DNA of 64,000 nucleotides, from NCBI GenBank assembly GCA_021776135.1, contig JAJFGL010000012.1:23258-87257 (forward strand), in the 5' to 3' direction. Under the pieces are notes generated by a model, which saw only the letters and a list, made by a program, of their open reading frames with translations, was not told where the DNA came from and made no database searches. This document shows positions 1 through 62,328 of this stretch, piece by piece. Made by a program: the position numbers and the translations under genes. The first letter of the stretch is position 1; the number at the start of each line of letters is the position of its first letter. Source of the DNA: Kiloniellaceae bacterium. Its GTDB lineage: Bacteria; Pseudomonadota; Alphaproteobacteria; Kiloniellales; J153.

Positions 1-330
1 TATGGCGTTACACGGGCGTGTGGAATAAGCGCTGCGGACCCGGGGGCAGTACCCGGCGCCTCCACCAATATTTCCTTCTCGGCCGCCGGGCAGAAAAGGA
101 ACCTCTTGGGGGCGAAATAGGATCGACGCGCGTGGTAAAGATGCGTTCGGCGCCCGGCATGGTACCGCCGTTATCGGGCCGTATTATAGTTGCAAACGAC
201 AACTATGGTGAGGCTCGCCTCGCCGCTTAATTGCGGCTGGTAAGCCAAATTAAGTCCTCGGCCTTCACACGCCGGGGCGGGGTTCGGGGCGCACCTGGCA
301 ACAGAAGCGCCCCACTTACCCTCCTGAAAC
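1..330 (+). ncRNA. ssrA: two-piece (circularly permuted) tmRNA gene: acceptor piece, spacer hairpin, then coding piece; both outer ends approximate and the 5' end may precede the window
   Basis: T-arm ccggg/7-nt loop/cccgg (40-56) abuts acceptor 3' strand cgcctcc + a + cca (57-67). Spacer hairpin at 68-107. gggggcgaaataggatcgacg (108-128) resembles the tmRNA 5' consensus, and GGGGGCG pairs with CGCCUCC giving a G3:U pair. Tag frame 192-230 = ANDNYGEARLAA-stop, followed by a hairpin. Confidence 0.8.
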
Positions 331-3233: not shown

Positions 3234-4114
3234 TCTTCGACCCGGTGAACCACGCCCGCCGCCAGTAAGGCCTCATGGCTCGGGAACCATATCTCCGTGT
3301 GGGCGGCGTCGAACACACGTTCCAGGAAATCCTCCGCGACATCCCGGCTCCGATAGAAACGGCGGTCCGTTTCCTGCTCCTTGGCCAGATCGAGGTAGGG
3401 GAGCGGAAGGTTCGCCGAAAGCCCGTATTGGTGGAATCCCAAACGGCCGTCCGCCCCCAGAACTCTTTCAACGCCGCCCATGAAGGCGATGGCGCAGGCC
3501 GAAGAGCAGGAGCCGGCGACATAGGTATTCAATCCGTATCGCCATATGAGTTTCGCCACCCCCCTGCTTTCATAAATGTGCCCGCCATGGCTTTCCAGAA
3601 CCATGACGGTGACCGCCGGATTCTGGTTCAGGATCGCTTCTAGCTTCCTGGTAACGCCTAATTCCAGGCTCCCGTTCAGGCGAACGCGCGTATCGCCGTC
3701 GCTCAGGGTCAGCGCGTATTTCGCCGCCCGCTCGCGTTCCAAGACCTCGGCCGCGAGTTCCATGTCTCGCGCCATGAATGTCTGTTGGTATGCCCCGAAG
3801 ACACCGATCAGGGTGGCGACGATGCTGACGGCAATGCCCATATAGACGCCCCAGACCCACCCGGCGGAACCGAAACCGGACAGGTAACGGTCGCACGACC
3901 GCAACACGCCGACAATCTGCCAGGGATAAATGACCAAATGGCCGATAACCAAGAACGAAACCGTCGCGGCGGCGGCGGCGGGGGACGCTTCGAGAAACGG
4001 CGGGTGGGTAAAGCGGTCGAGATAGAAGACGATCAGGCGCCCAAGCACCAGATTCACCAGGAACGCGCGAAGCAGCGAATGGCGGCCGCGCCAGTGATCG
4101 CGAATATAGCCCAT
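3230..4114 (-). CDS. membrane protein with C-terminal ClpP/crotonase-like (periplasmic protease-like) domain
   Basis: 294-aa ORF with several N-terminal hydrophobic helices. C-terminal VMVLESHGGHIYESRGVA...GSCSSACAIAFMGG pattern. Confidence 0.5.
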   Translation of the reverse strand: MGYIRDHWRGRHSLLRAFLVNLVLGRLIVFYLDRFTHPPFLEASPAAAAATVSFLVIGHLVIYPWQIVGVLRSCDRYLSGFGSAGWVWGVYMGIAVSIVATLIGVFGAYQQTFMARDMELAAEVLERERAAKYALTLSDGDTRVRLNGSLELGVTRKLEAILNQNPAVTVMVLESHGGHIYESRGVAKLIWRYGLNTYVAGSCSSACAIAFMGGVERVLGADGRLGFHQYGLSANLPLPYLDLAKEQETDRRFYRSRDVAEDFLERVFDAAHTEIWFPSHEALLAAGVVHRVED

Positions 4115-4132
4115 GGCGTCCTAGTGCGGTGG

Positions 4133-7100
4133 TTACTTAACCAAACCCTTCAGCAAGCCCTTGAGGCCTTGTTTGAGTATGTCGTCGGGTTTGATCTGTT
4201 GAGGCTGCGCCGGGGCGGGTTGCGCGCCGGTGCCTTCCGCCGGCGCCGGGGCGCGGCGGAAGGCCTGTCCCGATATCTTCGGGTTCGGCTTGTCGAGCGG
4301 CCCGGTGAGCTTGGCGGTCAGATAAGGCGTGTTCGGATCGCCCTCGCGGAAAACATCCGTTTGGGTATTGATTTTCCAAGCCGCCAGATCGGCGGCGCCC
4401 TTGGTCAAAGCCGCGGCCTGGCGGCCGTCCAGGCGCAGATCCTCGGTCACGGCCACACCCTTGTCGATCTTGAACGTCCCTTTGAGCTGGGCGGGCGCAT
4501 CGGCGAAGGCATTGAACAGGACGTTGGTCGTATCGGCCACGCCCCGGATTTCCTTGGCCTTCGCCCCCAGGATGCCGAGCAGGATGGACCCCACCTTCTC
4601 CTCCGCCTTGGCGATCAGGTTCAAGGCGCCGCTCACATCGCCGGTGCCGGCGAGGCCGGAAACGAGTTCCGCCTCGCTGCGGCCCTTGGCCGCGATCGAG
4701 GCGTTGAAGTTCAGCGGTCCCGATATCCGCTCGCTATCGGCCAGGTCTTTCGCGAGCTTGGCCAGGTTGAGTTCGATCGCGGTTATGGCGAGGCCGGTTT
4801 CGATACCCGCGCGGGTGTCGATCTTGCCCGATAACTGGACGGCGCCGCCGTAGAGGGTGCCGCCGAACTTGCGCAGATCGATAACGCCCTCGTTCAAGGC
4901 GGCATCGATGACCGCGTTGTCCAGGCGGGTCCGGTCATTAACCAAGGCGGCGGCCCGTAATTTAAGATCGGCGTCGAATCCGTGCAGCGCGGTGGTATCG
5001 ATAACCGCCCGGGACCAGCGGGCCGAGACATCGGACCTGGCGTCGGTGGGGGTGGTGGTGGGTGCGCCGCCAGGGGCCGGTTTCGCTTTTCCGCCCTTTG
5101 ACGCCGGGGCGGCGAAAGCGGCCAGCGGCAGAACGCCGGTTACGAGATCGGCTGAAATCCTGGGACGAGGGCCGTTTAAATCCAGCCCGAGCGATCCCTT
5201 CACCTCGCTCGGCCCGATCTTTCCGGCGATTCCGCTCAGGTTGATAAGCCGATGGGTGCCCTGAACCCGCGCCGCGAGATCAAACCCCAGTCCCGGCGCC
5301 AATCCGGCCCCGGGGGCGAAAGAGCGGATCAAGGCGGCCAAGTCCGGGTGCTTGACCGCGACTGTCATGTCCAGGGCGTTGATCGCCGGTTCGGTTCCGC
5401 CAAGGTCCGCCGTCAGCCCGCCATCGAGGCTAAGCGGGCCAAGTTGGCCCTTCACCGCGCTCAGTGTAATTATTTGCGCCGTTCCCGCCGCCTTCGCACT
5501 CAAGTCCAGGGCCCCGAATCCGGGCTCGAGGCCGATACCGGGCGACAGGTCGGCAAGCAGCTTCGCCAGATCGCCGTGCCGCCCGCTCAAATCGAGATCG
5601 AACGCCAGGGGTTTGGTCAAGGGGCTAACCCGGCCCTTCGCCGTGAAACGCCCGCCGAGCGCCGTTAAATCGCCGCTCACGCTCAGTTGGTCCTGCATAC
5701 CCTTCACGGTGCCGGAGACAGTCAGACTTTTCGTCCGCGCCAAGGGCCCCGGCGCCGATCCGAGGGCCTTCGCGATCCCGGCCGGATTGGCGGTAGCGAG
5801 ATCGTAGGCCGCGTCCACGGCCGGGGCCGTCGTCAGATCCGTGAAAGTACCGGCCACGCGCAGCTTGGCGCCGTCCGCGATGTCGCCGGCGGAAAACTCG
5901 CGCAGATCGAGAGACGCCTGCTGCAAGGTCGCATCGAAATACAGATCGGCGGCGGCGATCTTTCCCAGGGTCAGGCGGCCAAGGCGAAGGTCGAAATTGG
6001 CGTCGAATTCCCCCAGGAAGGCGGGCGCGGCAAAGCGGGGCGGTTCCGCGGCGCTTTCCTGGGTTTCCCCTGTACCGGATTCCACCGCCGTGGCCAAACC
6101 ATCGGCCGGGCGTTGCGCCGGCAAGTAGGCATCGAGGTCGATCTTGTCGAGCGTCAGTCCAATGCCGACCCCAAGCCGGTCGCGAAGCGCGACCGCGACC
6201 CCGCCGGTTATCCGGCTGAGATCCAAACGAAGGTCGATATCGCCGAGCACGATATCCGATGGAGTCGCGCCGATGTTCATGGCCAAGCTCATCTTGCGCA
6301 GGCGCGACGCCGGAACCTGGCCTACATCGACACCCAGCCAATCGAGAACGCCGCGCAGGTTGTCCGACCCGGCATCCAAACGGCCGTCGAAGCGCAAACC
6401 GGGCGCCGCCCCACCGGCCGGCGCGGCCATGCCGGTCAAGGAAACGTCGGAGCCTCCGGGCAGCAAGGCCAGCGCCTGATTGAATCTCAAGACACCTTCT
6501 TCAAGAGCCAGCGCGAATAAAAATTGCCGGACCACTTGGCCCCGGTACACCACGGCGTCGACCGACACCTCCAGCGACCCAGTCATATCAGCCGGTAAAG
6601 CCAGCGCCGCGGTTTTTTCCTCTGCCGGTTTTGGCGCCGGCGTGGGCGGGGAAGTATCTACTCTGTCCTGCCCCGCCGGCGCATCCCCAGACGGCGGTGC
6701 CAGCAAGGCGTCGAGATCGATACGCGACGCGGAGAGGCGAAGTTGTAAATCCCGGTGCGGCTCCAGCGTGAACTGAATCTCGCCATCCGCTTCGGTTCCG
6801 GCTATCCGAACGGTGAGTTCACTGAACGAGACCTGCTCCGGGTTCGCCGCGACCTCGGACTCGATTGCGAAGGGCTTGGCTAGAATGGCTGGCAGGGACG
6901 CATCCAAGGGCAGCACGGCGGCCAAGGCGGCAAAATCGCTGCCCGTGCCTTTCACGCGGCCGCGCAGGGATAGGCGCTCTTCGTGGCGTGAGAGGGTGCC
7001 GGAAAAGCGCAGCGAGGCCTCCACTTCCGGCACGCCCAGCACCAGGCGAAGAGAAGTGGCGCCGCCATTCACTAGGCTGCCCAGGCTCAATTCGAAATCG

Positions 7101-37480: not shown

Positions 37481-37557
37481 TGGTCGGGGAGAGAGGATTC
37501 GAACCTCCGGCCCCCGCCTCCCGAAGACGGTGCTCTACCAGGCTGAGCTACTCCCCG
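37481..37557 (-). tRNA. tRNA-Pro (anticodon CGG)
   Basis: Reverse complement CGGGGAGTAGCTCAGCCTGGTAGAGCACCGTCTTCGGGAGGCGGGGGCCGGAGGTTCGAATCCTCTCTCCCCGACCA folds as a cloverleaf. Anticodon loop TTCGGGA; encoded CCA. Confidence 0.95.
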
Positions 37558-50600: not shown

Positions 50601-52400
50601 CTAGCGGCGCCCGAACAGGCGTTCGATATCGGCCAGTTTCAACTCGACATAGGTCGGGCGGCCATGATTGCACTGGCCGGAATGGGGAGTGGCCTCCATC
50701 TGGCGCAGCAGGGCGTTCATCTCGTCCACATTGAGGCGGCGTCCGGCCCGCACCGAACCGTGGCAGGCCAAGGTGCCGCAGACCTCTTGCAAGCGTTCCT
50801 TGAGGGCCAGGGATTGACCGATTTCCGCCAGTTCGTCGGCCAAATCGCGGACCAGGCCCTGCACGTCGAGATCGCCCAGCAGGGCCGGCACCTCGCGGAC
50901 CACCACGGCGCCGGGGCCGAAGGCCTCGAGCACCAGTCCCAGGGCGGCCAATTCTTCGCTACGCTCGCTCAAGCGCGCCGCCGCCTCGGGCTCCAATTCC
51001 ACCACCTCCGGCATCAAAAGCGCCTGGCGGGTCACGCCTTGGGCGGCCATTTGCTGCTTCATGTCTTCGTAAACCAGGCGCTCGTGGGCGGCGTGCTGAT
51101 CGACGATGACAATGCCGTCGGCGGTTTGCGCGACCACATAGGTTTCATGGACCTGCGCCCTGGCGGCGCCCAAGGGGTAGTCCGCGTCCAGGTTTTCCGG
51201 CGCCTGGTCCGCGGCCGCGCCGGGCGCCGCCGCCAGCGCCGGCAAGGGCGCTTGGCCCGCCAGGGATGTTTCGGCCAAGCCTCGTGGCGCTACGCCGCCG
51301 GCGCGGGCGCGCCAGGTCTGGGCCACGCCTGGATTATGGCCGGGGCGAAAGGCGCCCAGGGCCGCCTGGGCCACGCTGCTTGATGCCCGGTGTCCCGCTT
51401 CGGCCAGGGCATGGCGGCAGGCGCCGACGATCAGGCCGCGTATCAGGCCGGGATCGCGAAAGCGGACCTCGGCCTTGGCCGGGTGGACGTTCACGTCGAC
51501 CGCCTCGGCGGGCAGGTCCAAAAACAGAGCCAGAAGGGCGTGGCGGTCGTGGGCCAGGAAGTCGTGATAGGCGCCGCGAACCGCGCCGTGGAGCAGCTTA
51601 TCGCGCACCGGGCGCCCGTTCACGAAGAGGTACTGATGGCGCGCGTTGCCCCGGTTCAGGGTCGGCAGGCCGATATATCCGCTGAGTTTGACGCCCTCGC
51701 GTTCGGCCTCGATGGGCAGGGCGTTGGCGGCGAAATCCCGGGCCATGACCGCGCCCAAGCGTGCTAGCCGCGTATAATTAAGTGCGCCTTGCGTAGAGGG
51801 TAAGTGCAGTAATTTGCGCGTTCCGTCGAATAAAGTGAAGCCGACCCGGGGGTGCGCCATGGCCAAGCGCTGCATGGCGTCGAGGACATAGCCCTGCTCC
51901 GTGCGCGTGGTCTTGAGGAACTTCAGACGCGCCGGGGTGGCGAAAAAAAGATCCCGCACCTCGATCCGGGTGCCGGGGGCTTGCGCGGCCGGGGTCAGCG
52001 CGCCGCGCCGTCCGCCCTCGACGCTCAGGGACCAGGCCTGGGCGCCGTCTTGCCCGCCGCGGACCCGGCTGGCGAGGCTGAGGCGCGAGACCGCGCCGAT
52101 GGAGGGCAGGGCCTCGCCGCGGAAGCCCAGGGTCGCGATGTTGACCAGATCGTCGCCGGGCAGCTTGGAGGTCGCGTGGCGCTCCAGGGCCAGTTCGATC
52201 TCGGGCCCGCTCATGCCCTGGCCGTCGTCGGCGACCGAAATAAATGTGCGGCCGCCGTCGCGCAAGACCACGTCGATCTGCTTGGCGCCGGCGTCCAGGG
52301 CGTTTTCGACCAGTTCCTTGACCGCCGCCGCCGGGCGCTCGATCACCTCGCCGGCGGCGATGCGGTTGACCAGGGTTTCCGGCAGGCGGCGCAGGGTCAT
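50601..52400 (-). CDS. mutL: DNA mismatch repair endonuclease MutL
   Basis: ATG 52400 ([39 protein letters not shown]). Start overlaps the pgi stop (ATGA). ORF-track entry 50601-53255 is over-extended. Confidence 0.95.
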
Positions 52401-53701
52401 GTCTTGGCCCCGTCCAGATAGTTCCGGGTCAGAACCTTGCTCTCCTCGACCGCCGGCTGATCGAAGGGGTTCACCCCCAGAAGATCGGCGGCGAGGATGG
52501 TCTCGAGCATGAAATGCATCATGAGCCCGCCCAGTGCCGCCTCGTCCACCCGTTCCACCGACAGCAGCCGCACCGGGCGGCCATTCTTCGCCAGGGTCTC
52601 GGCGGTCGCCCGGGCCGAGGCGGCGATCAGGTCGCCCAGGGGCCGCCCGGCCAGGTAAGCGGCCCCGGCGGCCTTGGCGAAGGCCGCGTCCATGACCGGC
52701 CCTTCGCCGCCGCAGGCGGGCATGACCAGGGTGAACATCTTGTCGCGCGGCCCGGCCAGGTAGAGCTGCAGCTGAGAATGATGATCCGCCGTGCCCAGGG
52801 CCCGCAGGGGCGTGGTGCCGGTGCCGTCCTTGCCCAGGCTCTCGGCCCAAAGCTGCCGGTACCAGAGGCCCAGGTTGGCCCAGCGGTCCTCGTAGGTCAT
52901 GAGAACGCTTTGCGTAATGCCCCGTTCCTGCAGCAGCCCCATGGCGATGGCGGCGCCCAGGGCCGGGGCCACGTCCTCGACCCGCTTCGCCTCCAGGGCG
53001 GCGCGCAGAACTTCGTTCGCGCCACGCCGCAAGGCCGCCACATCGAGCCCGGCGAGCAGCCCCGGCAAGGCGCCGACAACGGAAAACACGGAAAACCGCC
53101 CGCCGATCCCCGGGTGGTGCGCGATGACCCGTAGGCCGTGACTGGCGGCGATGCGCGACACAGGGCTCTCCCCCGCCTCGGTGATGACGACCGCATGATC
53201 GCCAAGCGCCGCCCGCCCCACCGCCGCCGCCAAGGCCGGCAGCAGGACCGCGCACTGAGCCAGGGTTTCCGCCGTCCCGCCCGATTTGGAGATAATGACC
53301 AGGCCGGTGCGCGCCAAGTCCAGCGCCCCCAGGAGCGCCGCCATGGTGTCGGGATCGACGTTATCGAGGAAGTGCAGACGCGGCCCGCCCAGGGCCGGCC
53401 CGAACCCCCGGTCCGAAAGGGCATACAAGGTCTTGCCGCCCAGGGACGAGCCCCCGGTGCCGAGGATAACCGCGTCGTCCAAACGCCCGCGCCAATCCTC
53501 GGCCAGGGCGCTCAGGTCTTCCAGGTCGCCGCTGTCCCGGACAACGCCCAAGGCCGGCAAACCGCCCGCGCCGAAAACCTGGCACAGCCGGTCATGGGCC
53601 GGCGCGGCGGCCATGAGCCCGCGCGTCAGGGCCCCATCGCTCAAGCCCCCTTCGCCGATATGATCGGCCAGGCAGGTATCCGTCAGGTGTTTGAAGGTCA
53701 T
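52397..53701 (-). CDS. pgi: glucose-6-phosphate isomerase (short bacterial type)
   Basis: 434 aa; [13 protein letters not shown], two SIS-like halves, C-terminal [10 protein letters not shown]. Confidence 0.9.
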
Positions 53702-53868
53702 GATGGCGGCAAGCTATCAGAGTCGCGGGACGCCGGGAAGCGGGCGGTGGGAGGAAAATGCGACGGAATGCGATTTGAGGTGCCGAGAGCGCAAGGTCGA
53801 ATCGAATGTCGGTTCAGCGGATGAAAGCGGTCGTTGTTCTTATGCGATGAGAGAGTCCGGGGTTAGCC
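53664..53868. repeat. direct repeat copy A (native pgi 5' end plus ~170 bp upstream)
   Basis: tcggccaggcaggtatccgtcaggtgtttgaaggtcatgatggcggcaagctatcagagtcgcgggac...ggatgaaagcggtcgttgttcttatgcgatgagagagtccggggttagcc. Recurs at 62533-62739 and in part at 57392-57490. Confidence 0.85.
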
Positions 53869-54050
53869 ATTTTCAAAAGTTCGCCGGATTCGGAATACCG
53901 TCAGCTCAAGGGCTGGAATCGACCCAACGCGGACGTTCATGGGCAAGCCCGTTTACTTCCGCTTTGGGGGCAGAAGGAAACATTAGACAATGATTACTAT
54001 ATTCTAGTATTGGTTGTGATCCAACTTGGTTTTCTTTTAGACTGCCTTAA

Positions 54051-55817
54051 ATGGACCGTTTTGAATTCACCCGGCTTTTTTGTGAACGTCCCCAATCGTA
54101 TGCATGGTTTTTGGGTGCTGGTGCGTCCCGGAATGCGAATCTTCCAACTGCGGAAGACATCCTTACAGATTTAAAGCGGCGTTATTACTGCTCGGAAGAA
54201 AATCAAGAATATTCCACCAAAGATATGCAGAACGAGGCAGTGAGGTCGACCGTTGAGGCATATGTCAAGACGCGCGGTTTTCCTGAACGTTGGGCTCCCG
54301 AAGAATACACAACATATTTTCAGACAATCTTCGGTGAAGACCGTGAGCGGCAACGTCGATACATAATTGGCATGTTAGCGGAAGACCGCGTTCGACTAGC
54401 CGTCGGTAATCGTGTGTTCGGCGCGCTCTTGGCAAGCGGTCTCGCGCGAGTCGCGTACACAACGAATTTCGACACCGTCGTGGAAAAATCGATCGCGGAA
54501 ATCGCCGGAAAGTCACTTTCTGCGTTTCACCTCGAAGGCGCGCATGGTGCAATTGCTGCCATCAACAACGAAGCGTATCCATTTTACTGCAAACTACATG
54601 GTGACTTTCGCTATGACAGCATCAAAAACCTCCAAGCCGATCTTGCCTCACAGAATGAAGACTTGTCGCGCAGTCTTGTAAATGCCGCCAATCGTTTCGG
54701 TCTGATTGTTGTTGGCTACTCCGGACGCGATGCCAGCGTCATGGGTTTACTGCGCGAAGCTCTCGACAACTCAAATCCGTTTCCCCATGGCGTATTCTGG
54801 ATGATCACCAAAGGGTCAGCGGCACCCAAACCAGTTACTGAATTTATAGAAGCCGCGCGTGTACGCGGTGTAACAGCCGAAATGGTGGAGATCGAGACTT
54901 TTGACACCTTAATGCTCCGCCTATGGCGGAATTTGACTGAGCGTCCAGAAGGTATGGACGAGAAGGTACGCAAGGGGCGCGTTGATGCCGTGTCTCTTCC
55001 AATTCCGGAGACCGATGGCGATAGACCGTTGATGCGGTACAATGCCCTTCCGGTTTTATCTATTCCTGATACGTGTTTTATCTTGGAACTGAAAACCAAG
55101 CCGACTTGGGAAACCGTCGGTCCTACTCTCAGGGAAGCTGACCACAATCTCATCACGACCGTTGATGATGATTTGATGGCATGGGGCGATCTTGATGATG
55201 CGCAATCGGTGTTCGGTGACGACTTTGTTGGCTCGTCAGAACATAGTTTCGAGTCGGACTGGCGAAAGACAGGCCGGTTGCACATCAAAAAGTTCTTAGA
55301 AGACGGCATAGGTAAAGCGTTCGCGCGCACGCGTCCGCTTCTCATGCGTCGGCGAGGATCTGGCGTCGTGCTGATCGTCGACAAGATGGCGGATGACGTG
55401 GGCATATTCGAACCACTCCATGCGATAACGGGCAAGACGACTGGCACAATCGCAGGCTTGTCCATTCCCGAAACTGAAGAGCACGATGCGGTCAACAAAG
55501 TGGACTTCGCAGAATCGGTTCGGATCAGTCTCGCATGGGGCGATGACCGTCTTTGGTTGCTGCTAAAGCCTGACGTGTGGATTTGGCCCCCATTCGCACG
55601 TCGTCACGCAACTCAATGGCTGGAGAAACGGAGGGGAGATCGAAGAAACGACAAGCACGATATGCTATTGAGCGCCTGGATATCCGTGCTCACCGATGGC
55701 GCAGGTCGCGCCGAAGACGTGACCCTCACGGCTTTTGAAGGTGAATCAGGACCGGGGAACCCATCCTATAGAATCTCCAGCAGAACCGGATACTCGAACA
55801 AGCGGGGACGCCGATGA
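54051..55817 (+). CDS. SIR2-APAZ protein (SIR2_2-type NADase domain + Argonaute-associated APAZ-like C-terminal region)
   Basis: 588 aa. [14 protein letters not shown] (aa 19-32), YTTNFD (N139, D141), CKLHGD (H183), VVGYSGRD (aa 220-227). About 330 further aa carry no enzyme motif. Stop overlaps the pAgo start. Confidence 0.85.
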
Positions 55818-57253
55818 GCTCAATCATTCTACCCGCCTACGTGTCGGTGCCAGAACCTGAACTATTGTTCCACAATAAGGGCAGAGATCGCCATCCGCTG
55901 CGAGGGCTCATTGATCATGGTCCGTTTAGCTTGCGGTTTGGTGCGCCTTCACGCGTCAGGTTCGCACTCGTCGCTCCCAAAAACGAAATGGCCCGGCTCG
56001 AAAACCTTGTTCATGAATTGGGTCAAACCGCAAAGCCGCGAGAAGCGATAAACTACTACCCGGACTATCCCGGATTTGAGACGGTGTTCCGCACTCCAAT
56101 CGCGCCGATCGATGACACACTCAAATTCGTGCTTCCGCAGGACTTGGACCGGTTCGCAGATGAAAACGACAAAATCAAAATGGCGCGTTTGCTTTTTTCT
56201 GAGATCGCGAAGCTGCGTACTCTCAAGGGGCAATTCGATGTCGCCCTGATTTATCTGCCGCGTCGATGGAGCGCTTGCTTTGAAGGCGAAAACTTCAATC
56301 TTCACCATTACCTAAAAGCGTTCTGCGCTCCGTCTCAGATTCCGATCCAGATTCTAAACCAGGACAGCTTCGACAGAATATGTCGCGCAAACGTCATGTG
56401 GGGGTTGTCCGTGGCGCTGTTCGCGAAGGCGAACGGAGAACCTTGGAAGCTGACAGGTCTCGACCCTCAAGAAGCCTTCATCGGCATCAGCTACGCGATG
56501 CGGAGAAAAGCTGGCAACAGCGGTCAGGAATACACAACATGTTGCAGCCAAATATTCGACCCAGACGGCACAGGGTTTAGGTTTGTTGCCTATGATGCAA
56601 AGGAATTCACTGAGGATCGACGACGGAACCCTTACCTTTCCTACTATGAAATGCAGTCGGTGCTTTCAAAGAGCATGTACGTCTACCAGCAGGGTCATGT
56701 CGGGCGCACGCCCAGAAAAATCACGATCCACAAAAATACCGAATTCAAGCCGGAGGAGATTGAAGCCGCGCTTGATAGTTTCAATGAGGGTACGGAGGTT
56801 GAATTGGTCCAGGTCGTTCAATCAACGGATTGGGCAGGCTTACGTTACACACCAGGCCGGGCCGCTTCGATAGACAAACCCGCCGAAAGTCAGAAAGCGC
56901 ACAACTATCCAGTAGAGCGGGGAACATATGTTCCGATGAGCGCAAATGAAACGCTGGCGTGGACGCAAGGAAGTGTCCGGGGTGTGCAGCTTCAGAACCC
57001 AAATTATTATGTCTACAAAGAAGGGGCGTTAAAGCCTACACCTTCACCAATTTTACTACGTCGCTTTTCGGGATCAGGTGGCTGGCACGAGACGGTCAAC
57101 GGAGTTCTTTCGCTAACCAAAATGGATTGGAACAACAATACGCTCTATAAGAAACTACCGGTCACCATGGTGTATTCCAGTCGTTTTGCGGAGATCATTC
57201 AGCAGAACCCAGAATTGGTTGATCAGGTCTATGATTTCCGCTGTTTCATGTGA
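55814..57253 (+). CDS. short prokaryotic Argonaute (MID + PIWI only, predicted catalytically inactive)
   Basis: 479 aa. [20 protein letters not shown] hallmark and H164-x3-K168...Q179...K205 pocket spacing. PIWI catalytic positions read as S226 (FIGISY), N308 (IHKNT) and S456 (VYSSRFAE). ggggac RBS before ATG 55814. Confidence 0.85.
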
Positions 57254-57391
57254 ACCTGCGTTATGTACGCAATTGGGATATTAGCGGACGTTACGTGCGG
57301 CCATGGCCAACGGCTCCTCTTGGCCGATGGTTGCCATTGCTCTCCAATCTGGTCAATGACCGATTAGGGTCAGATTCAGAGATTCCAATGA

Positions 57392-57490
57392 CCCCTCGCC
57401 GATATTATCGGTCAGGTGTTAGAAGGTCATGATGGTGACAAGCTAACAGAGTCGCGGGACGGCGGGCAGCGGGCGGGGGTCGGAAAATGC
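57392..57490. repeat. direct repeat copy B (degenerate pgi 5' end plus upstream)
   Basis: The reverse strand reads atg acc ttc TAA cac ctg acc gat aat atc ggc gag ggg (pgi codons 1-19 with K4 to stop and a 15-nt deletion), then gatggtgacaagctaacagagtcgcgggacggcgggcagcgggcgg. Confidence 0.8.
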
Positions 57491-58595: not shown

Positions 58596-59567
58596 TCAGC
58601 AGCCCGCGACGCAGATGCCGCCGCCGTCGAACTCCATGGTCCTTTCGCTCAAGGGTAGGTGCACCGGCACCTTGACCGCCGTGATGAAGGCGTCGGTCTT
58701 GGTGCCGGCGACGACCTTGCCGCCCTCTGTGGCGACCTCGTTGGCGTGCGAGACAATGACGCTGTTCGGCTTGACCAGGTCGTTGATAACGAAGGCCGCT
58801 TCCGTCGGCCCGGTGGTGAAGACGTCGCCGATGTTCATGACCGCGAGCGTGGCCTTGTAGTGCCGGCGTACCACGCTGTCCTGCTCGGCGGTAATCCCGG
58901 TATCGCCCGACAGGTAAACGACGAGCCCGTTCGAGAAGGTCAGCACGTAGCCGGTCGGCGGGCCGGCATAGCCCGCGAGGCCGGCCGCCTTGAGCAGTTT
59001 TCCAAGTTCGCCCCCGATAAAGGCTGGATTGACGCCATTCGAGTGAACCGCCGGAACGGTGGTGATCTTGACGCCGCCGAACGCGCGCGCCGAGCCGAAG
59101 CGCGCGAGTTGCGATTTTTTCTCATCGCCGCCCAGCGCCTTCAACTTGGCGCCGAAAAACTTCCGCATCTCGCTGCCGGTGACAATCGTCGCGTTCTTGG
59201 CAAGGGCGATGTTGACGGTGTTGGTGTTCGGCGCCGCCGTGACGGAAAGCGTCGGCTCGCCGCAGGTTCCCGCGTTGGGCTGCGGCTGATGCTTGTCGCC
59301 GGCATGGTCGCCATGCATGTGGCTTACCAGAACCACATCGATCTTGCCGAGGCGCGGATCCTTGGCGCCCGCCACCGTGCGGCCCGCGTCATACAAAATT
59401 CTCGTGCCGTTCGGATCCTCGAAGATCATCGCCCGGTCGAATTTGCAGAATTCGCCTTTTACGAGCCCAAGCGGGGTGACCTTCACGTTGGCCGCCTTAG
59501 CGGGATGCCCGGCAAGGCCCACTAACCCGGCGGCCAAGGCCACCAGGACATAACGAATGGTGCGCAT
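58596..59567 (-). CDS. secreted MBL-fold metallo-hydrolase
   Basis: 323 aa; signal peptide MRTIRYVLVALAAGLVGLAGHPAKA; VLVSHMHGDHAGD metal motif. Confidence 0.8.
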   Translation of the reverse strand: MRTIRYVLVALAAGLVGLAGHPAKAANVKVTPLGLVKGEFCKFDRAMIFEDPNGTRILYDAGRTVAGAKDPRLGKIDVVLVSHMHGDHAGDKHQPQPNAGTCGEPTLSVTAAPNTNTVNIALAKNATIVTGSEMRKFFGAKLKALGGDEKKSQLARFGSARAFGGVKITTVPAVHSNGVNPAFIGGELGKLLKAAGLAGYAGPPTGYVLTFSNGLVVYLSGDTGITAEQDSVVRRHYKATLAVMNIGDVFTTGPTEAAFVINDLVKPNSVIVSHANEVATEGGKVVAGTKTDAFITAVKVPVHLPLSERTMEFDGGGICVAGC

Positions 59568-59883
59568 CGGATGCTCTCCTTCTAACTAAGTGCCCGTTAC
59601 CCGAATCCTCCCCCGCATCCCCTGAGTTTATCGATTTTCAGGTTCGGAGAAAGTGGGTTCGCTCATCTTCGCAGCCTTGCGTGAGAGCACAGGCGCGCAC
59701 GAGTTCTTAGGTCATACACGAAATAAAAATTCCCTTACTATTAGAAAACAATGATTAAAATCAAATATTATATCGCTGCAATTTTCACATCACGTATGTT
59801 TTATCAAGAATATGTCATATAAATATTGTAAAATACTCGTGTGTGCACTATATGTTTATTGGCAGCAAATCATTGCTGCCGGA

Positions 59884-60045
59884 ATGAAAGACATTTACAT
59901 GTCCTTTAAGAATTTTTCCTCGGCACAAGACGCCTCGAGTAAAAGCAGCCCCGGCGACAAGTCCAAGCCCGCGCAGGCCGCCGTTCAACCGGCCACACAA
60001 CCTGACAAGACACCGGACGAAGCCGCGCCGACGCCCAAGTCGTAG
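59884..60045 (+). CDS. small Pro/Lys/Ala-rich hypothetical protein (start 59884 or 59899)
   Basis: Short ORF after a very AT-rich spacer; low-complexity sequence, uncertain. Confidence 0.3.
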   Translation: MKDIYMSFKNFSSAQDASSKSSPGDKSKPAQAAVQPATQPDKTPDEAAPTPKS

Positions 60046-60122
60046 CCGTCGGATTGGAGGGAGCAAAAGCCGCCTCCGCCACGCGTGAATTTGACGGTGA
60101 GGCCGCAAGCAGGACCCAGCCG

Positions 60123-60458
60123 ATGACGATGCGCACGAGCAAGAAAACGGTGACTTTCAGGAAGCCCTTCATCCTGGGCGGGTTCGATGAGGTGCTGCCG
60201 GCCGGCGCCTACAGCGTGGAATCCGATGAGGATCTCTTGGAAGGTGTTTCCTTCCCCGCCTACCGGCGGGTTTTGACCGTCATCCACCTTCATGCGAAGC
60301 CCGGCTATCCGAACCGTACGCAGACTTTGACAATCGTACCGAGTGAATTGGACGCAGCCCTGGAGCGCGACAAGGCGCCCGCATTGCCCCAAGAAAAGAG
60401 CGACCGTCAAGCCATGGAACGAGGCGAAGACGAGGGGATGTTCGTTCACCCTAGGTGA
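60123..60458 (+). CDS. conserved hypothetical protein
   Basis: ATG 60123 within ORF 60054-60458; TVTFRKPFILGGFDEVLPAGAYSVESDEDLLEGVSFPAYRR; no family name recognised. Confidence 0.5.
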   Translation: MTMRTSKKTVTFRKPFILGGFDEVLPAGAYSVESDEDLLEGVSFPAYRRVLTVIHLHAKPGYPNRTQTLTIVPSELDAALERDKAPALPQEKSDRQAMERGEDEGMFVHPR

Positions 60459-60720
60459 ACAACCGCCTCATAGAGCCTTTGAGTACGGGTGTTGCCAAAT
60501 TTAAGGCTCAAGCGGGTAGCGCTGAGTGAAGCCGCGATCCACTGGCGCGCCCTGGGCTAATCCAGAGCCGGTGCGCGTCTGTGGGAACCCACAGAATGCA
60601 CACGCGAAGCATAACGGTAACGGCTGGGATTGCGATCGGCCTTACCGAAAACAAAGCGATGGGGTCGCTTCGCGTTGAAGCGAGAGTAAAGAGTGCGATC
60701 ACAGAGAAAGGCATGAGACT

Positions 60721-61032
60721 ATGACGGACGAAACGGTCGACCTCGACGAGCGTCGCGGCATGGCCGCTCAAAAAGCGACGGAATTTCGCCGCCAGCGCCT
60801 CCACGAGTTTCATTCCGACCAGGCGGCCTTGCAACGCCGCCAGGAAGAGCTCGAGAGACTTCTCCTGGCCGCTCCGGCAGAGACTTGGCCGGAGGCAGCC
60901 GCCAAGGCGCAGTATCTTATCCAGCTCTTCGCCGCCACACTGGAGGCTCAGGAACCGCGCCGCAAGGAACTGATCGCCCACGCACTCGACGATCTCACCC
61001 GTCTGTGCGAGCGCGCGAAGGAAGAGTCATGA
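60721..61032 (+). CDS. hypothetical helical protein
   Basis: 103 aa, predicted coiled/helical. Stop overlaps the next ORF start (ATGA, 61029-61032). Confidence 0.5.
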   Translation: MTDETVDLDERRGMAAQKATEFRRQRLHEFHSDQAALQRRQEELERLLLAAPAETWPEAAAKAQYLIQLFAATLEAQEPRRKELIAHALDDLTRLCERAKEES

Positions 61033-61220
61033 CCAAATCCACGGCGGCAAAAGCGCTCGGCGATCAGCCGTCCTTGGAAGACCCCAAGGTTCGCCAATGC
61101 CTCAGATGCCAAGCCACGTTTCCGAGCAAGTGGTCCGGCGAGCGGATCTGTTTTCGCTGCAAATCTACTAATGCATGGCGGAACGGCGCGCCGCTTAGGT
61201 CCAGCTCTTTTTCGCAATAG
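61029..61220 (+). CDS. small zinc-ribbon protein (CxxC...CxxC)
   Basis: 63 aa; CLRCQATFPSKWSGERICFRCK. Translationally coupled to 60721-61032. Confidence 0.5.
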   Translation: MTKSTAAKALGDQPSLEDPKVRQCLRCQATFPSKWSGERICFRCKSTNAWRNGAPLRSSSFSQ

Positions 61221-61280
61221 ACATTAGAACTCTACCGCCAAGCGGCCGAGCCGCATACGCCAAGGAAGGAACCTAAAAAT

Positions 61281-61466
61281 ATGAACACGTCAAATCGTGG
61301 ATCGAAGCATGTCTGCCGGAAGTGCGAGAGAATGTATTACGATCTGGGAAAGCAGATCGTCGCTTGTCCGATATGCGGCGTTAAGCCGCTTCCGCAGAAA
61401 GCGCCAAGAGCGGCTTCGCCGGTTAGAAAAGCCGTCTCCACGGCCTTCAGGCGATACCCGGCGTAG
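61281..61466 (+). CDS. TIGR02300-like (FYDLN-acid family) zinc-ribbon protein
   Basis: 61 aa; CRKCERMYYDLGKQIVACPICG. Confidence 0.6.
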   Translation: MNTSNRGSKHVCRKCERMYYDLGKQIVACPICGVKPLPQKAPRAASPVRKAVSTAFRRYPA

Positions 61467-61477
61467 GCTCTCGCAAC

Positions 61478-61741
61478 ATGACATTGAATTTTCCGAACCG
61501 GAGCCGCAGCTACGAGGAAAGACGGAACCTTGTTCGCTTCTGGGGATATGACACCGCGCTGGAGATTTCGTTTTTCGTGGAGGTGAGCGCTCTCTTCAAG
61601 TTGTATCCGCAAACGAAGAACGAGGAAGCCGGCTATTTGGAGGCGTTCGATACCGCTCGGGACAGAATCCACGAGGCCGCCCGCAAGGTCTATTCGAAAA
61701 CCCGCCAAGGCGCCTACATCCTGGCCGCGGCGGATTTCTGA
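61478..61741 (+). CDS. DUF1488 domain-containing protein
   Basis: 87 aa; MTLNFPNRSRSYEERRNLVRFWGYDTALEISFFVE. Confidence 0.7.
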   Translation: MTLNFPNRSRSYEERRNLVRFWGYDTALEISFFVEVSALFKLYPQTKNEEAGYLEAFDTARDRIHEAARKVYSKTRQGAYILAAADF

Positions 61742-61977
61742 ATTTGCCCGGTATTTCTCTGGCCCAACCTCGTCTTAATTGAGAGGGAAGATCCCAAATA
61801 TCGTCAAAATATCCGTATCGAATATATTATAAAAAGCATTGTTATCAGAAGATTACGGAGCAATATAGCCGGCTATTTATTTTTATTAATATTTAGGTTT
61901 TACTGACTTCTATTTTCGGGTATATTTATAGGTTATTGAGGGGAGAAATAATTTTTCCCCAAAGGGAGAACAACCAA

Positions 61978-62328
61978 ATGAAACAACTTGAATGGCTAAA
62001 GCCTGCACTATTTGGCGCCGCGGCCGGTGCTGTCGCGCTCGCGGTCGTCGGCTTCTCATGGGGCGGATGGATGACCGGCGGGGCGGCCGAGAAATTGGCC
62101 TACAATCAGGCGCGGCTCGAAGTCGTCGCCGCCTTGGTGCCGATCTGCATGGAACAGTCCAACCAGGACCCGCAGGTCGTGGCCATGCTTGCCCAGTTGA
62201 AGGACACCAGCAGCTATCAGCGCAACGACATGCTCATGAAAGCCGGCTGGGCCACGATGCCAGGTTCAAGCGATCCCAATCGGGACGTCGCGCGCGCGTG
62301 CATGGCAAAACTGGCGGCCCAGTTCTAG
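61978..62328 (+). CDS. hypothetical membrane-anchored protein
   Basis: ATG 61978 with agggaga RBS; one TM helix ALFGAAAGAVALAVVGFSWGGW. Confidence 0.55.
   Translation: MKQLEWLKPALFGAAAGAVALAVVGFSWGGWMTGGAAEKLAYNQARLEVVAALVPICMEQSNQDPQVVAMLAQLKDTSSYQRNDMLMKAGWATMPGSSDPNRDVARACMAKLAAQF

Follow-up and report, generated by a model that had tools for sequence, protein, structure and literature searches.

The open reading frame at positions 54051-55817 of the window, the 64,000-nt stretch of DNA analysed here, very probably encodes the SIR2-APAZ effector of a two-gene SPARSA-B (clade S1B) short-Argonaute system, and the overlapping gene at 55814-57253 its pAgo partner (Table 1). Homology, domain architecture, conserved residues, predicted fold and operon structure are firm in this analysis. 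The locus is thus unremarkable within a thoroughly studied type of bacterial defence, where a short Argonaute that senses invading DNA triggers an NAD+-destroying partner. An initial sequence-only reading had proposed a SIR2 NADase effector with a C-terminal APAZ that would dock on the neighbouring pAgo, and all computational tests agree with this proposal.

Table 1 Features of the SPARSA-B locus and its surroundings, with positions counted from the first letter of the window
Feature	Position	Strand	Detail
SIR2-APAZ gene, effector subunit of SPARSA-B short-Argonaute system	54051..55817	+	588 codons + stop
SIR2 NADase domain, aa 1-305	54051..54965	+	Pfam SIR2_2; 46% identity to Gs Sir2 residues 8-308
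GAGAS, start of NAD cofactor-binding loop, aa 22-26	54114..54128	+	loop to A34 = Gs G25-A37
N139 codon AAT, catalytic Asn	54465..54467	+	TTNFD at aa 137-141; = Gs N142
H183 codon CAT, catalytic His	54597..54599	+	KLHGD at aa 181-185; = Gs H186
S224-G225-R226-D227 in GYSGRD, NAD ribose/phosphate contacts	54720..54731	+	Gs S227, R229, D230
Flexible SIR2-APAZ linker, aa 306-327	54966..55031	+	pLDDT <50 at 309-323, full-length model
APAZ domain, aa 328-588	55032..55814	+	25.5% identity to Gs APAZ residues 331-580
ATGA overlap, pAgo start / SIR2-APAZ stop	55814..55817	+	sequence ...CGCCGATGAGC...
Short pAgo gene, 479 aa, MID-PIWI, sensor subunit	55814..57253	+	PADLOC pAgo_I E=1.2e-186
Low-GC insert, 3.6 kb, two-gene operon as sole cargo	53762..57391		GC ~0.49-0.56 vs 0.61-0.71 flanks
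Left flanking direct repeat	53648..53761		first 18 codons of intact pgi (minus strand) + ~60 nt upstream
Right flanking direct repeat, ~88% identical	57392..57490		decayed pgi 5' end: TAA at codon 4, 15-nt deletion

Full-length homology carries the assignment of the 588-aa protein. The best PADLOC model was PDLC02419 Aga_SIR2-PNTD1-PNTD2 (E=4.6e-186), matched over profile positions 1-556 of 558, and residues 5-582 of the query aligned with the Geobacter sulfurreducens (Gs) Sir2-APAZ chains 8IN8_B, 8JKZ_A and 8JL0_A in the PDB (E=4e-127). Identity to the Gs protein was 37% overall, with 46% in SIR2 and 25.5% in APAZ. Both SIR2-APAZ and pAgo also matched the fused PADLOC models PDLC02420 and PDLC02384, though far more weakly (E=2e-65 vs 4.6e-186). 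An antisense 260-aa ORF (54716-55498, minus strand) had no Pfam match and was taken as spurious, as it is the plus-strand frame that is conserved across the family.

Residues ~260-588 had been described as impossible to name from the sequence, and as far as general domain libraries go this holds: Pfam matched SIR2_2 at aa 134-260 (E=2.2e-13), and no Pfam or NCBIfam model covered the region beyond aa 260. The C-terminal region looked unassignable because Pfam covers the SIR2_2 core alone and NCBIfam, which had no match for either SIR2-APAZ or pAgo, covers nothing. PDLC02419 and the solved structures do cover the region, so that it can be named after all. The domain boundary implied at ~260 had to be moved, since SIR2 runs to ~305 and is followed by a disordered linker (306-327) and by APAZ from ~328. 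This layout parallels that of the Gs protein, whose linker between Sir2 and APAZ comprises residues 309-331 (PMC10781750). The AlphaFold (AF2) model of SIR2-APAZ was well ordered up to ~residue 306, and a model of residues 306-588 reached a pLDDT of 87.4.

Foldseek matches of the APAZ model followed a clear order. Gs APAZ came first (target-normalised TM 0.82-0.86, E down to 2e-20), followed by the APAZ regions of SPARTA, SPARDA and SPARHA (E 1.5e-7 to 4e-5, query-normalised TM ~0.45-0.54, 9-14% identity), then by AfAgo-N (8PVV_C, E=2.6e-6), and then, more weakly, by the long Argonautes MpAgo and RsAgo (E 5e-4 to 3e-3, ~190-206 columns). No unrelated enzyme fold was found among the Foldseek matches of residues 306-588. 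The comparison with the N-L1-L2 region of long Argonautes, which the sequence-only reading had suggested for this part of the protein, thus points to a predicted APAZ fold that resembles N-L1-L2 weakly. The fold matches to the split protein AfAgo-N and to MpAgo and RsAgo, at 10-14% identity, fit the literature, in which APAZ is equated with N, L1 and L2 of long Argonautes; unlike in RsAgo and MpAgo, PAZ is absent, and the partner fused to APAZ is an effector domain instead of MID-PIWI. Within the APAZ domain, conservation extends to the basic surface residues R435, R517, R528 and R531.

The two residues expected of a SIR2 NADase, N139 in TTNFD and H183 in KLHGD, are present where they had been placed and equal the mutation-tested Gs dyad. 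Neither varied among 65 aligned homologues (65/65, mean column identity 65%), and G22, A23, A34, Y86, F140, H160, D185, S224, R226 and D227 were likewise invariant. Several of these are NAD-binding equivalents, with G22, A23, A34, S224, R226 and D227 corresponding to Gs G25, A26, A37, S227, R229 and D230. Because the dyad is invariant together with NAD-contacting residues at this level of divergence, the motifs are not chance matches. In the Gs protein, N142A and H186A abolished guide/target-dependent NADase activity (PMC10781750; PMC11452484), A26L and A37F nearly abolished activity and S227A and R229A lowered it (PMC11452484), while D230A abolished defence.

The partner protein was closer still to its characterised homologue, with a PDB match to 8IN8_C at E=9e-170 and 54% identity to GsAgo; Pfam returned no match for pAgo. 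The HK-type 5'-phosphate pocket is kept (H164, K168, I180 and N440, equal to Gs H166, K170, I182 and N434), as is the C-terminal methionine, M479, with its free carboxylate (Gs M473). The sensor loop at aa 261-276 is conserved, N272 and Y274 included. GsAgo and all short pAgos have been reported to lack the DEDX catalytic tetrad in PIWI, and from its identity to GsAgo the present PIWI would be expected to lack it as well. The 4-nt ATGA overlap suggests translational coupling of the two genes. Across related genomic loci, pAgo lay directly after SIR2-APAZ in 9/11, and SIR2-APAZ and pAgo lost identity in parallel (78/88, ~60/77 and 45/56%). A 424-aa ORF that follows pAgo in the Hyphococcus locus was rejected as a third operon gene, being unique to that locus and matching neither Pfam nor PADLOC models.

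We modelled the probable mechanism on the experimentally characterised Geobacter sulfurreducens system, so that the formation of a complex, its choice of guide and target, its activation and its role in defence are all put forward here by analogy. APAZ (aa ~328-588) and SIR2 would hold the MID-PIWI pAgo in a clamp, forming a 1:1 heterodimer built like a long Argonaute without PAZ, and a small guide RNA would be held by its 5'-phosphate in the pAgo MID pocket. Pairing of the guide with complementary ssDNA of an invading plasmid or phage would displace the PIWI sensor loop, and this displacement would release and rearrange the SIR2 domains, which in Gs occurs via tetramerisation. N139 and H183 would thereby be brought into place for the hydrolysis of NAD+, which yields ADP-ribose and nicotinamide, and the resulting NAD+ depletion would cause the infected cell to stop growing or die. 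The heterodimer, an NADase activated by guide RNA and ssDNA, and defence against plasmids and phages have been demonstrated only in Gs and a small number of further homologues.

Overall, the locus shares with GsSir2/Ago (SPARSA-B, S1B; PDB 8IN8, 8JKZ, 8JL0, 8K87, 8Y7Z, 8Y80) the two-gene operon and similar protein lengths (588 + 479 aa here, 584-587 + 473 aa in the Gs PDB constructs). Common to both are the SIR2-linker-APAZ and MID-PIWI architectures, the N/H dyad, the NAD-binding loop and GYSGRD, and in pAgo the HK-type 5'-phosphate pocket, the C-terminal Met and the PIWI sensor loop. It differs from Gs in its high-GC alphaproteobacterial host, in the limited identity of the proteins, at 37% for SIR2-APAZ and 54% for pAgo, and in residues that contact neighbouring subunits, guide or target. 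At the Gs tetramer interface, H158, Y168, Q192, N244 and Q297 of SIR2-APAZ are replaced by S155, H165, D189, S241 and N294, and pAgo H104 by T102; the exact geometry of oligomeric activation may therefore differ from that in Gs. The APAZ aromatic pair Y530/F532, which in Gs stacks on the target 3' end, is D530/R532 here. In pAgo, Gs D164 (guide 5'-A recognition) is N162 and H310 (2'-OH contact) is E310. Judged by these substitutions, the system may not share exactly the guide and target preferences of Gs.

Because the residues of the Sir2-Sir2, pAgo-pAgo and target-3'-end contacts are not conserved, we weighed the possibility that this SPARSA homologue has an oligomeric state unlike the Gs tetramer, or another guide or target preference. 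Mutation-sensitive Gs positions are among those that differ, with H158, Y168, N244, R296-Q297 and pAgo H104 (PMC11452484) represented by S155, H165, S241, R293-N294 and T102. These interface positions vary across the family, position 530 is D in the family majority, and one published study saw no higher-order Gs oligomers. However, R293 (Gs R296), G153, L156, N172, N242 and H246 are conserved, as is the sensor loop that triggers oligomerisation, and interface residues often drift while the mode of assembly stays. A departure of this kind is on balance unlikely, and activation in the Gs manner remains the preferred reading. If true, it would mean an oligomeric geometry or guide/target preference other than that of the Gs paradigm.

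The genomic setting was assessed from base composition, flanking sequence and related loci. In the high-GC host chromosome the operon occupies a low-GC insert bounded by direct repeats of the pgi 5' end (Table 1), and similarity to the Hyphococcus locus at the DNA level was confined to 54003-57253. No integrase or transposase was found in the insert. In a search for the empty site, 80 metagenome loci with pgi relatives at <=76% identity retained the pgi-mutL-hpf synteny, and none carried TauD, SIR2-APAZ or pAgo upstream of pgi. Look-ups of TauD and pAgo returned only two short Logan contigs (run SRR15505516), both 100% identical to the window, and no alternative context. One possible mode of entry is recombination in the pgi 5' end that brought the operon in as a 3.6-kb cassette lacking an integrase; if true, this would be an unusual route for moving minimal defence cassettes. 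This entry, like the separate idea that an alphaproteobacterial SPARSA-B clade with its 588-aa SIR2-APAZ is activated unlike Gs, is an unlikely reading.

Features of this insert could also be read as those of an inactive remnant, in which the operon is the cargo of a decayed integrated element and is neither expressed nor functional. Consistent with such decay, the insert has no integrase or transposase and its right-hand repeat holds pgi only as a decayed fragment. A sigma-70 scan of the plus strand upstream of the operon found no promoter-like site, although such a simple scan is weak evidence in an alphaproteobacterium, and scans for promoters and terminators gave nothing exceeding shuffled expectation. 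Yet neither ORF is truncated or broken by a frameshift or stop, the catalytic, NAD-binding, 5'-phosphate-binding and sensor-loop residues are all retained, and the ATGA coupling of the two genes is kept. SPARSA is moreover known from the literature as a self-contained two-gene system. We consider a dead remnant improbable and an intact, functional operon the better reading.

The absence of a zinc ribbon had been taken as a sign of an NADase rather than a deacetylase, on the ground that no Cys cluster lies between the Asn and His motifs. The Cys4 zinc ribbon of canonical sirtuins sits C-terminal of the catalytic His, not between Asn and His, and a gap between these motifs that lacks Cys therefore tells nothing by itself; what counts is the lack of a cluster in the whole protein. 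This broader absence does hold, as the four cysteines of SIR2-APAZ (C11, C47, C180 and C342) are scattered, no CxxC pair occurs across all 588 aa, and only 2/65 family members contain any CxxC. Among the 50 best Foldseek matches of the SIR2 domain there were no sirtuin deacetylases, and the nearest folds after SPARSA were ThsA, DSR2 and KomC. With four cysteines that form no CxxC and no deacetylase among these 50 matches, a canonical sirtuin deacetylase was rejected. That the domain is a protein deacylase or ADP-ribosyltransferase of the classical sirtuin type, and not an NAD+ hydrolase, is highly improbable: the Asn/His pair and Rossmann NAD-binding motifs are shared with deacetylase sirtuins, and in superposed structures Gs N142 and H186 coincide with N116 and H135 of yHst2 (PMC11452484), but the protein lacks zinc-ribbon cysteines, its closest folds after SPARSA are NADases, and in the Gs homologue helix alpha10 blocks the peptide channel and the product is ADP-ribose according to the literature.

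As a SIR2 NADase, the effector resembles those of several other defence systems. ThsA (Thoeris), DSR2 and KomC share with it a SIR2 Rossmann domain with a helical module, the Asn/His dyad and the absence of a zinc ribbon, and their output is NAD+ depletion as abortive infection, as in SPARSA. They differ in having no APAZ, whereas the present system carries one and would be triggered by its Argonaute; DSR2 is triggered by a phage tail tube protein, ThsA by a cyclic ADPR isomer signal via its SLOG sensor domain, and others of this group by different cues. The single-chain SPARSA-A (S1A) fusions PgSir2-Ago (Paraburkholderia graminis) and JomSIR2-APAZ-Ago (Joostella marina) have the same domain order and NAD+ depletion output, whereas here there are two polypeptides whose stop and start codons overlap. 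SPARTA (S2A), SPARDA and SPARHA likewise combine the APAZ fold with a short pAgo and guide-directed target recognition that switches an APAZ-fused effector; their effectors are TIR, a DREN/DUF4365 nuclease or HNH, in place of SIR2. Membership of SPARTA was rejected, as the N-terminal domain is SIR2 and not TIR and the APAZ part alone resembles SPARTA chains.

Public records of SIR2-APAZ and pAgo proteins leave them unnamed or label them as hypothetical protein, SIR2 family protein or even 'nuclease PIN', and the NCBI copy of the present SIR2-APAZ starts at an internal Met, so that the NAD-binding loop is missing. The locus raises no new biological question, and its chief value lies in correct annotation. 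As a complete SPARSA-B locus, it is a divergent alphaproteobacterial addition to a family that has been studied almost entirely via one Geobacter homologue, and it could be set against that homologue to establish which activation contacts are general.

The reading frame at 54051-55817 (+) is translated without interruption into 588 residues. With the overlapping short pAgo gene it forms a typical, although divergent, new member of SPARSA-B, a defence family that is already known and has solved structures. The PADLOC model for Argonaute-associated SIR2-APAZ proteins (PDLC02419) spanned residues 10-584 (E = 4.6e-186), and in a PDB sequence search residues 5-582 aligned with the Sir2-APAZ subunit from the SPARSA complex of Geobacter sulfurreducens (Gs; 8IN8_B, 8JKZ_A and 8JL0_A; E = 4e-127), with identities in that alignment of 46% in the Sir2 domain, 41% in the linker and 25.5% in the APAZ domain. 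Both searches cover the region of residues ~260-588, in which the sequence-only reading had recognized no nameable motif; the region seemed nameless because Pfam sees only the SIR2_2 core (residues 134-260) and the NCBIfam search of the protein gave no match. The published Gs limits (Sir2 to 308, linker 309-331, APAZ 331-587; PMC10781750), when transferred, agree with the full-length AlphaFold model, in which two confident domains are joined by a segment with pLDDT < 50 (309-323), and both place the end of the SIR2 domain near residue 305, such that the initial boundary of ~260 was too early.

Domains of the SIR2-APAZ protein and features of the insert carrying its operon
Feature	Position or length	Strand	Basis or description
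SIR2 domain	residues ~1-305	+	Gs limits carried over
Linker	residues 306-327	+	Gs limits carried over
APAZ domain	residues 328-588	+	Gs limits carried over
Low-GC stretch carrying the operon	3.6 kb		GC ~0.49-0.56; composition profile
Imperfect direct repeat bounding the insert	53648-53761 and 57392-57490		~100-114 nt, ~88% identical, one 15-nt indel

We modelled residues 306-588 from a 65-sequence alignment (mean pLDDT 87.4, pTM 0.83) and compared the model with the PDB using Foldseek. Gs SPARSA gave the top matches through its APAZ region (E 2e-20 to 1e-17); its APAZ-only chains 8K87_B, 8IN8_B and 8Y7Z_A showed target-normalised TM of 0.82-0.86 and rmsd of 2.6-4.1 Å. Next came APAZ from SPARTA, SPARDA and SPARHA (E 1.5e-7 to 4e-5), then AfAgo-N, a split N-L1-L2 protein (8PVV_C, E = 2.6e-6), and lastly two long Argonautes, MpAgo and RsAgo (E 5e-4 to 3e-3, ~190-206 columns). 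Fold prediction of the C-terminal region had been proposed as a check on APAZ, and the model indeed matches Gs APAZ first and long Argonautes more weakly, which fits the published identification of APAZ as the counterpart of N, L1 and L2 in long Argonautes. An unrelated enzyme fold, named beforehand as the outcome that would count against APAZ, did not appear among the PDB matches of this model.

The catalytic residues lie where they were first read: N139 in TTNFD (residues 137-141; codon AAT, 54465-54467) and H183 in KLHGD (residues 181-185; codon CAT, 54597-54599). They align with Gs N142 and H186, and either mutation, N142A or H186A, is enough to abolish the guide/target-dependent consumption of NAD+ in vitro (PMC10781750; PMC11452484). 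Every other NAD-pocket residue tested or described in Gs is also present: cofactor-loop G25, A26 and A37 as G22, A23 and A34; Y89, F143, H163, D188 and R190 as Y86, F140, H160, D185 and R187; and S227, R229 and D230, the last of which abolishes phage defence in Gs when mutated (D230A), as S224, R226 and D227. All of these except R187 were invariant across 65 aligned homologues, which are 48-95% identical and average 65% identity per column, so the match is far beyond chance.

A zinc-ribbon cysteine cluster had been reported missing between the two catalytic motifs. The Cys4 zinc ribbon of canonical sirtuins follows the catalytic His rather than lying between Asn and His, and the useful statement therefore concerns the whole protein, which indeed lacks such a cluster, having four cysteines (11, 47, 180 and 342) and no CxxC pair. 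The cluster is missing in 63 of the 65 homologues too. After SPARSA, the best Foldseek matches of the full-length model were the defence NADases ThsA, DSR2 and KomC, with no sirtuin deacetylase among the 50 best.

The pAgo gene (55814-57253, +) starts at an ATG overlapping the SIR2-APAZ stop codon (ATGA) and encodes 479 residues matching PADLOC pAgo_I (E = 1.2e-186) and the Gs short pAgo (8IN8_C; E = 9e-170, 54% identity). The Gs residues at the guide 5'-phosphate and metal ion (H166, I182, N434 and C-terminal M473) are retained as H164, I180, N440 and M479, K170 is retained as K168, and the PIWI sensor loop D261-S276 is conserved, including N272 and Y274. pAgo is encoded immediately downstream of SIR2-APAZ in 9 of 11 related reference-genome loci, and the SIR2-APAZ/pAgo identities drop in parallel across related loci (78/88, about 60/77 and 45/56%), as expected for co-evolving subunits. 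Koopal et al. (PMC9097488) defined this two-gene layout as clade S1B, or "SPARSA-B". Sequence and models thus support the sequence-only reading of a SIR2 NADase effector with APAZ and a pAgo partner, with its domain boundary corrected.

Several functional Gs residues are changed in the window proteins. Gs H158, Y168, N244 and Q297 and pAgo H104, mutation of which weakens tetramerisation or activity, are replaced by S155, H165, S241, N294 and T102; the APAZ aromatic pair Y530 and F532, which stacks on the flipped target 3' end, by D530 and R532; and pAgo D164 (5'-A recognition) and H310 (guide 2'-OH contact) by N162 and E310. The five tetramerisation or activity positions vary across the family, and D is the majority residue at position 530. 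Such divergence is ordinary in extent. The system could differ from Gs in oligomeric geometry or guide preference, but we consider this unlikely.

The SPARSA-B operon is flanked by housekeeping genes with GC of 0.61-0.71 (rluB-like, rsmD-like, hpf, mutL and pgi on one flank, TauD-family and MBL-fold genes on the other). The left repeat copy comprises the first 18 codons of intact pgi (minus strand) and ~60 nt upstream; on the right lies a decayed second copy of the pgi 5' end, with TAA at codon 4. No integrase or transposase was found between the copies, and no empty insertion site among 80 metagenomic pgi loci. DNA similarity to Hyphococcus sp. DHS20C05, the closest genomic relative, is limited to 54003-57253, and the operon of that genome adjoins a TraG/VirD4-type T4SS coupling protein (positions 3812-5569 of its locus, L001), so it is probably located on a conjugative element. 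Low GC, the repeats, the confined similarity and the T4SS neighbour make the operon look horizontally acquired. Eight nucleotides after the Hyphococcus operon lies a 424-aa ORF (L001 9489-10763) with an N-terminal CxxC...CxxC motif, which had no Pfam or PADLOC match and was absent from the window and the other related loci.

Elsewhere in the window, low-GC pockets (~0.45-0.48) occur at 59500-59999 and 61500-61999, among small ORFs lacking family matches (60054-60458 and 60721-61032) and a DUF1488 gene (61478-61741). The 59500-62000 region, whose ORFs had no PADLOC match, may be a further segment that was acquired. The sole tRNA, tRNA-Pro (CGG; 37481-37557, -), is not next to the insert. Positions 1-316 carry the 3' part of an alphaproteobacterial tmRNA of the two-piece (permuted) type, truncated at the edge of the window (Rfam RF01849, 232 bits), which places the host in the Alphaproteobacteria. 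The mechanical mutL ORF (50601-53255, -; 884 aa) has an open upstream extension overlapping pgi that is probably a high-GC artefact; the Pfam MutL-domain match begins near 52430.

Public records of these genes are misleading, as a pAgo that shares a 90%-identity cluster with the window pAgo appears in GenBank as "nuclease PIN" (GJL93851.1, Hyphococcus/Marinicaulis MAG), and the window pAgo itself has no Pfam or NCBIfam match. The 100% identical NCBI copy of SIR2-APAZ (P0002) is called from internal M59 as 530 aa, and thereby loses residues 1-58 (54051-54224) with the GAGAS cofactor loop. A Logan copy has all 588 residues, and this gene call and the homologues support the start at 54051.

Homology, architecture, residues and fold were observed in the window proteins, and the biochemistry they suggest is drawn from Gs. 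By analogy, SIR2-APAZ and pAgo would form a 1:1 heterodimer, in which APAZ and SIR2 wrap the MID-PIWI protein, and would load a 5'-phosphorylated small RNA. Pairing of the guide with complementary plasmid or phage ssDNA would move the sensor loop and free the SIR2 domain, whose rearrangement would align the catalytic His; in Gs, one study describes this rearrangement as taking place through a tetramer of heterodimers, which others did not observe. Hydrolysis of NAD+ to ADP-ribose would follow, with growth arrest or death of the infected cell.
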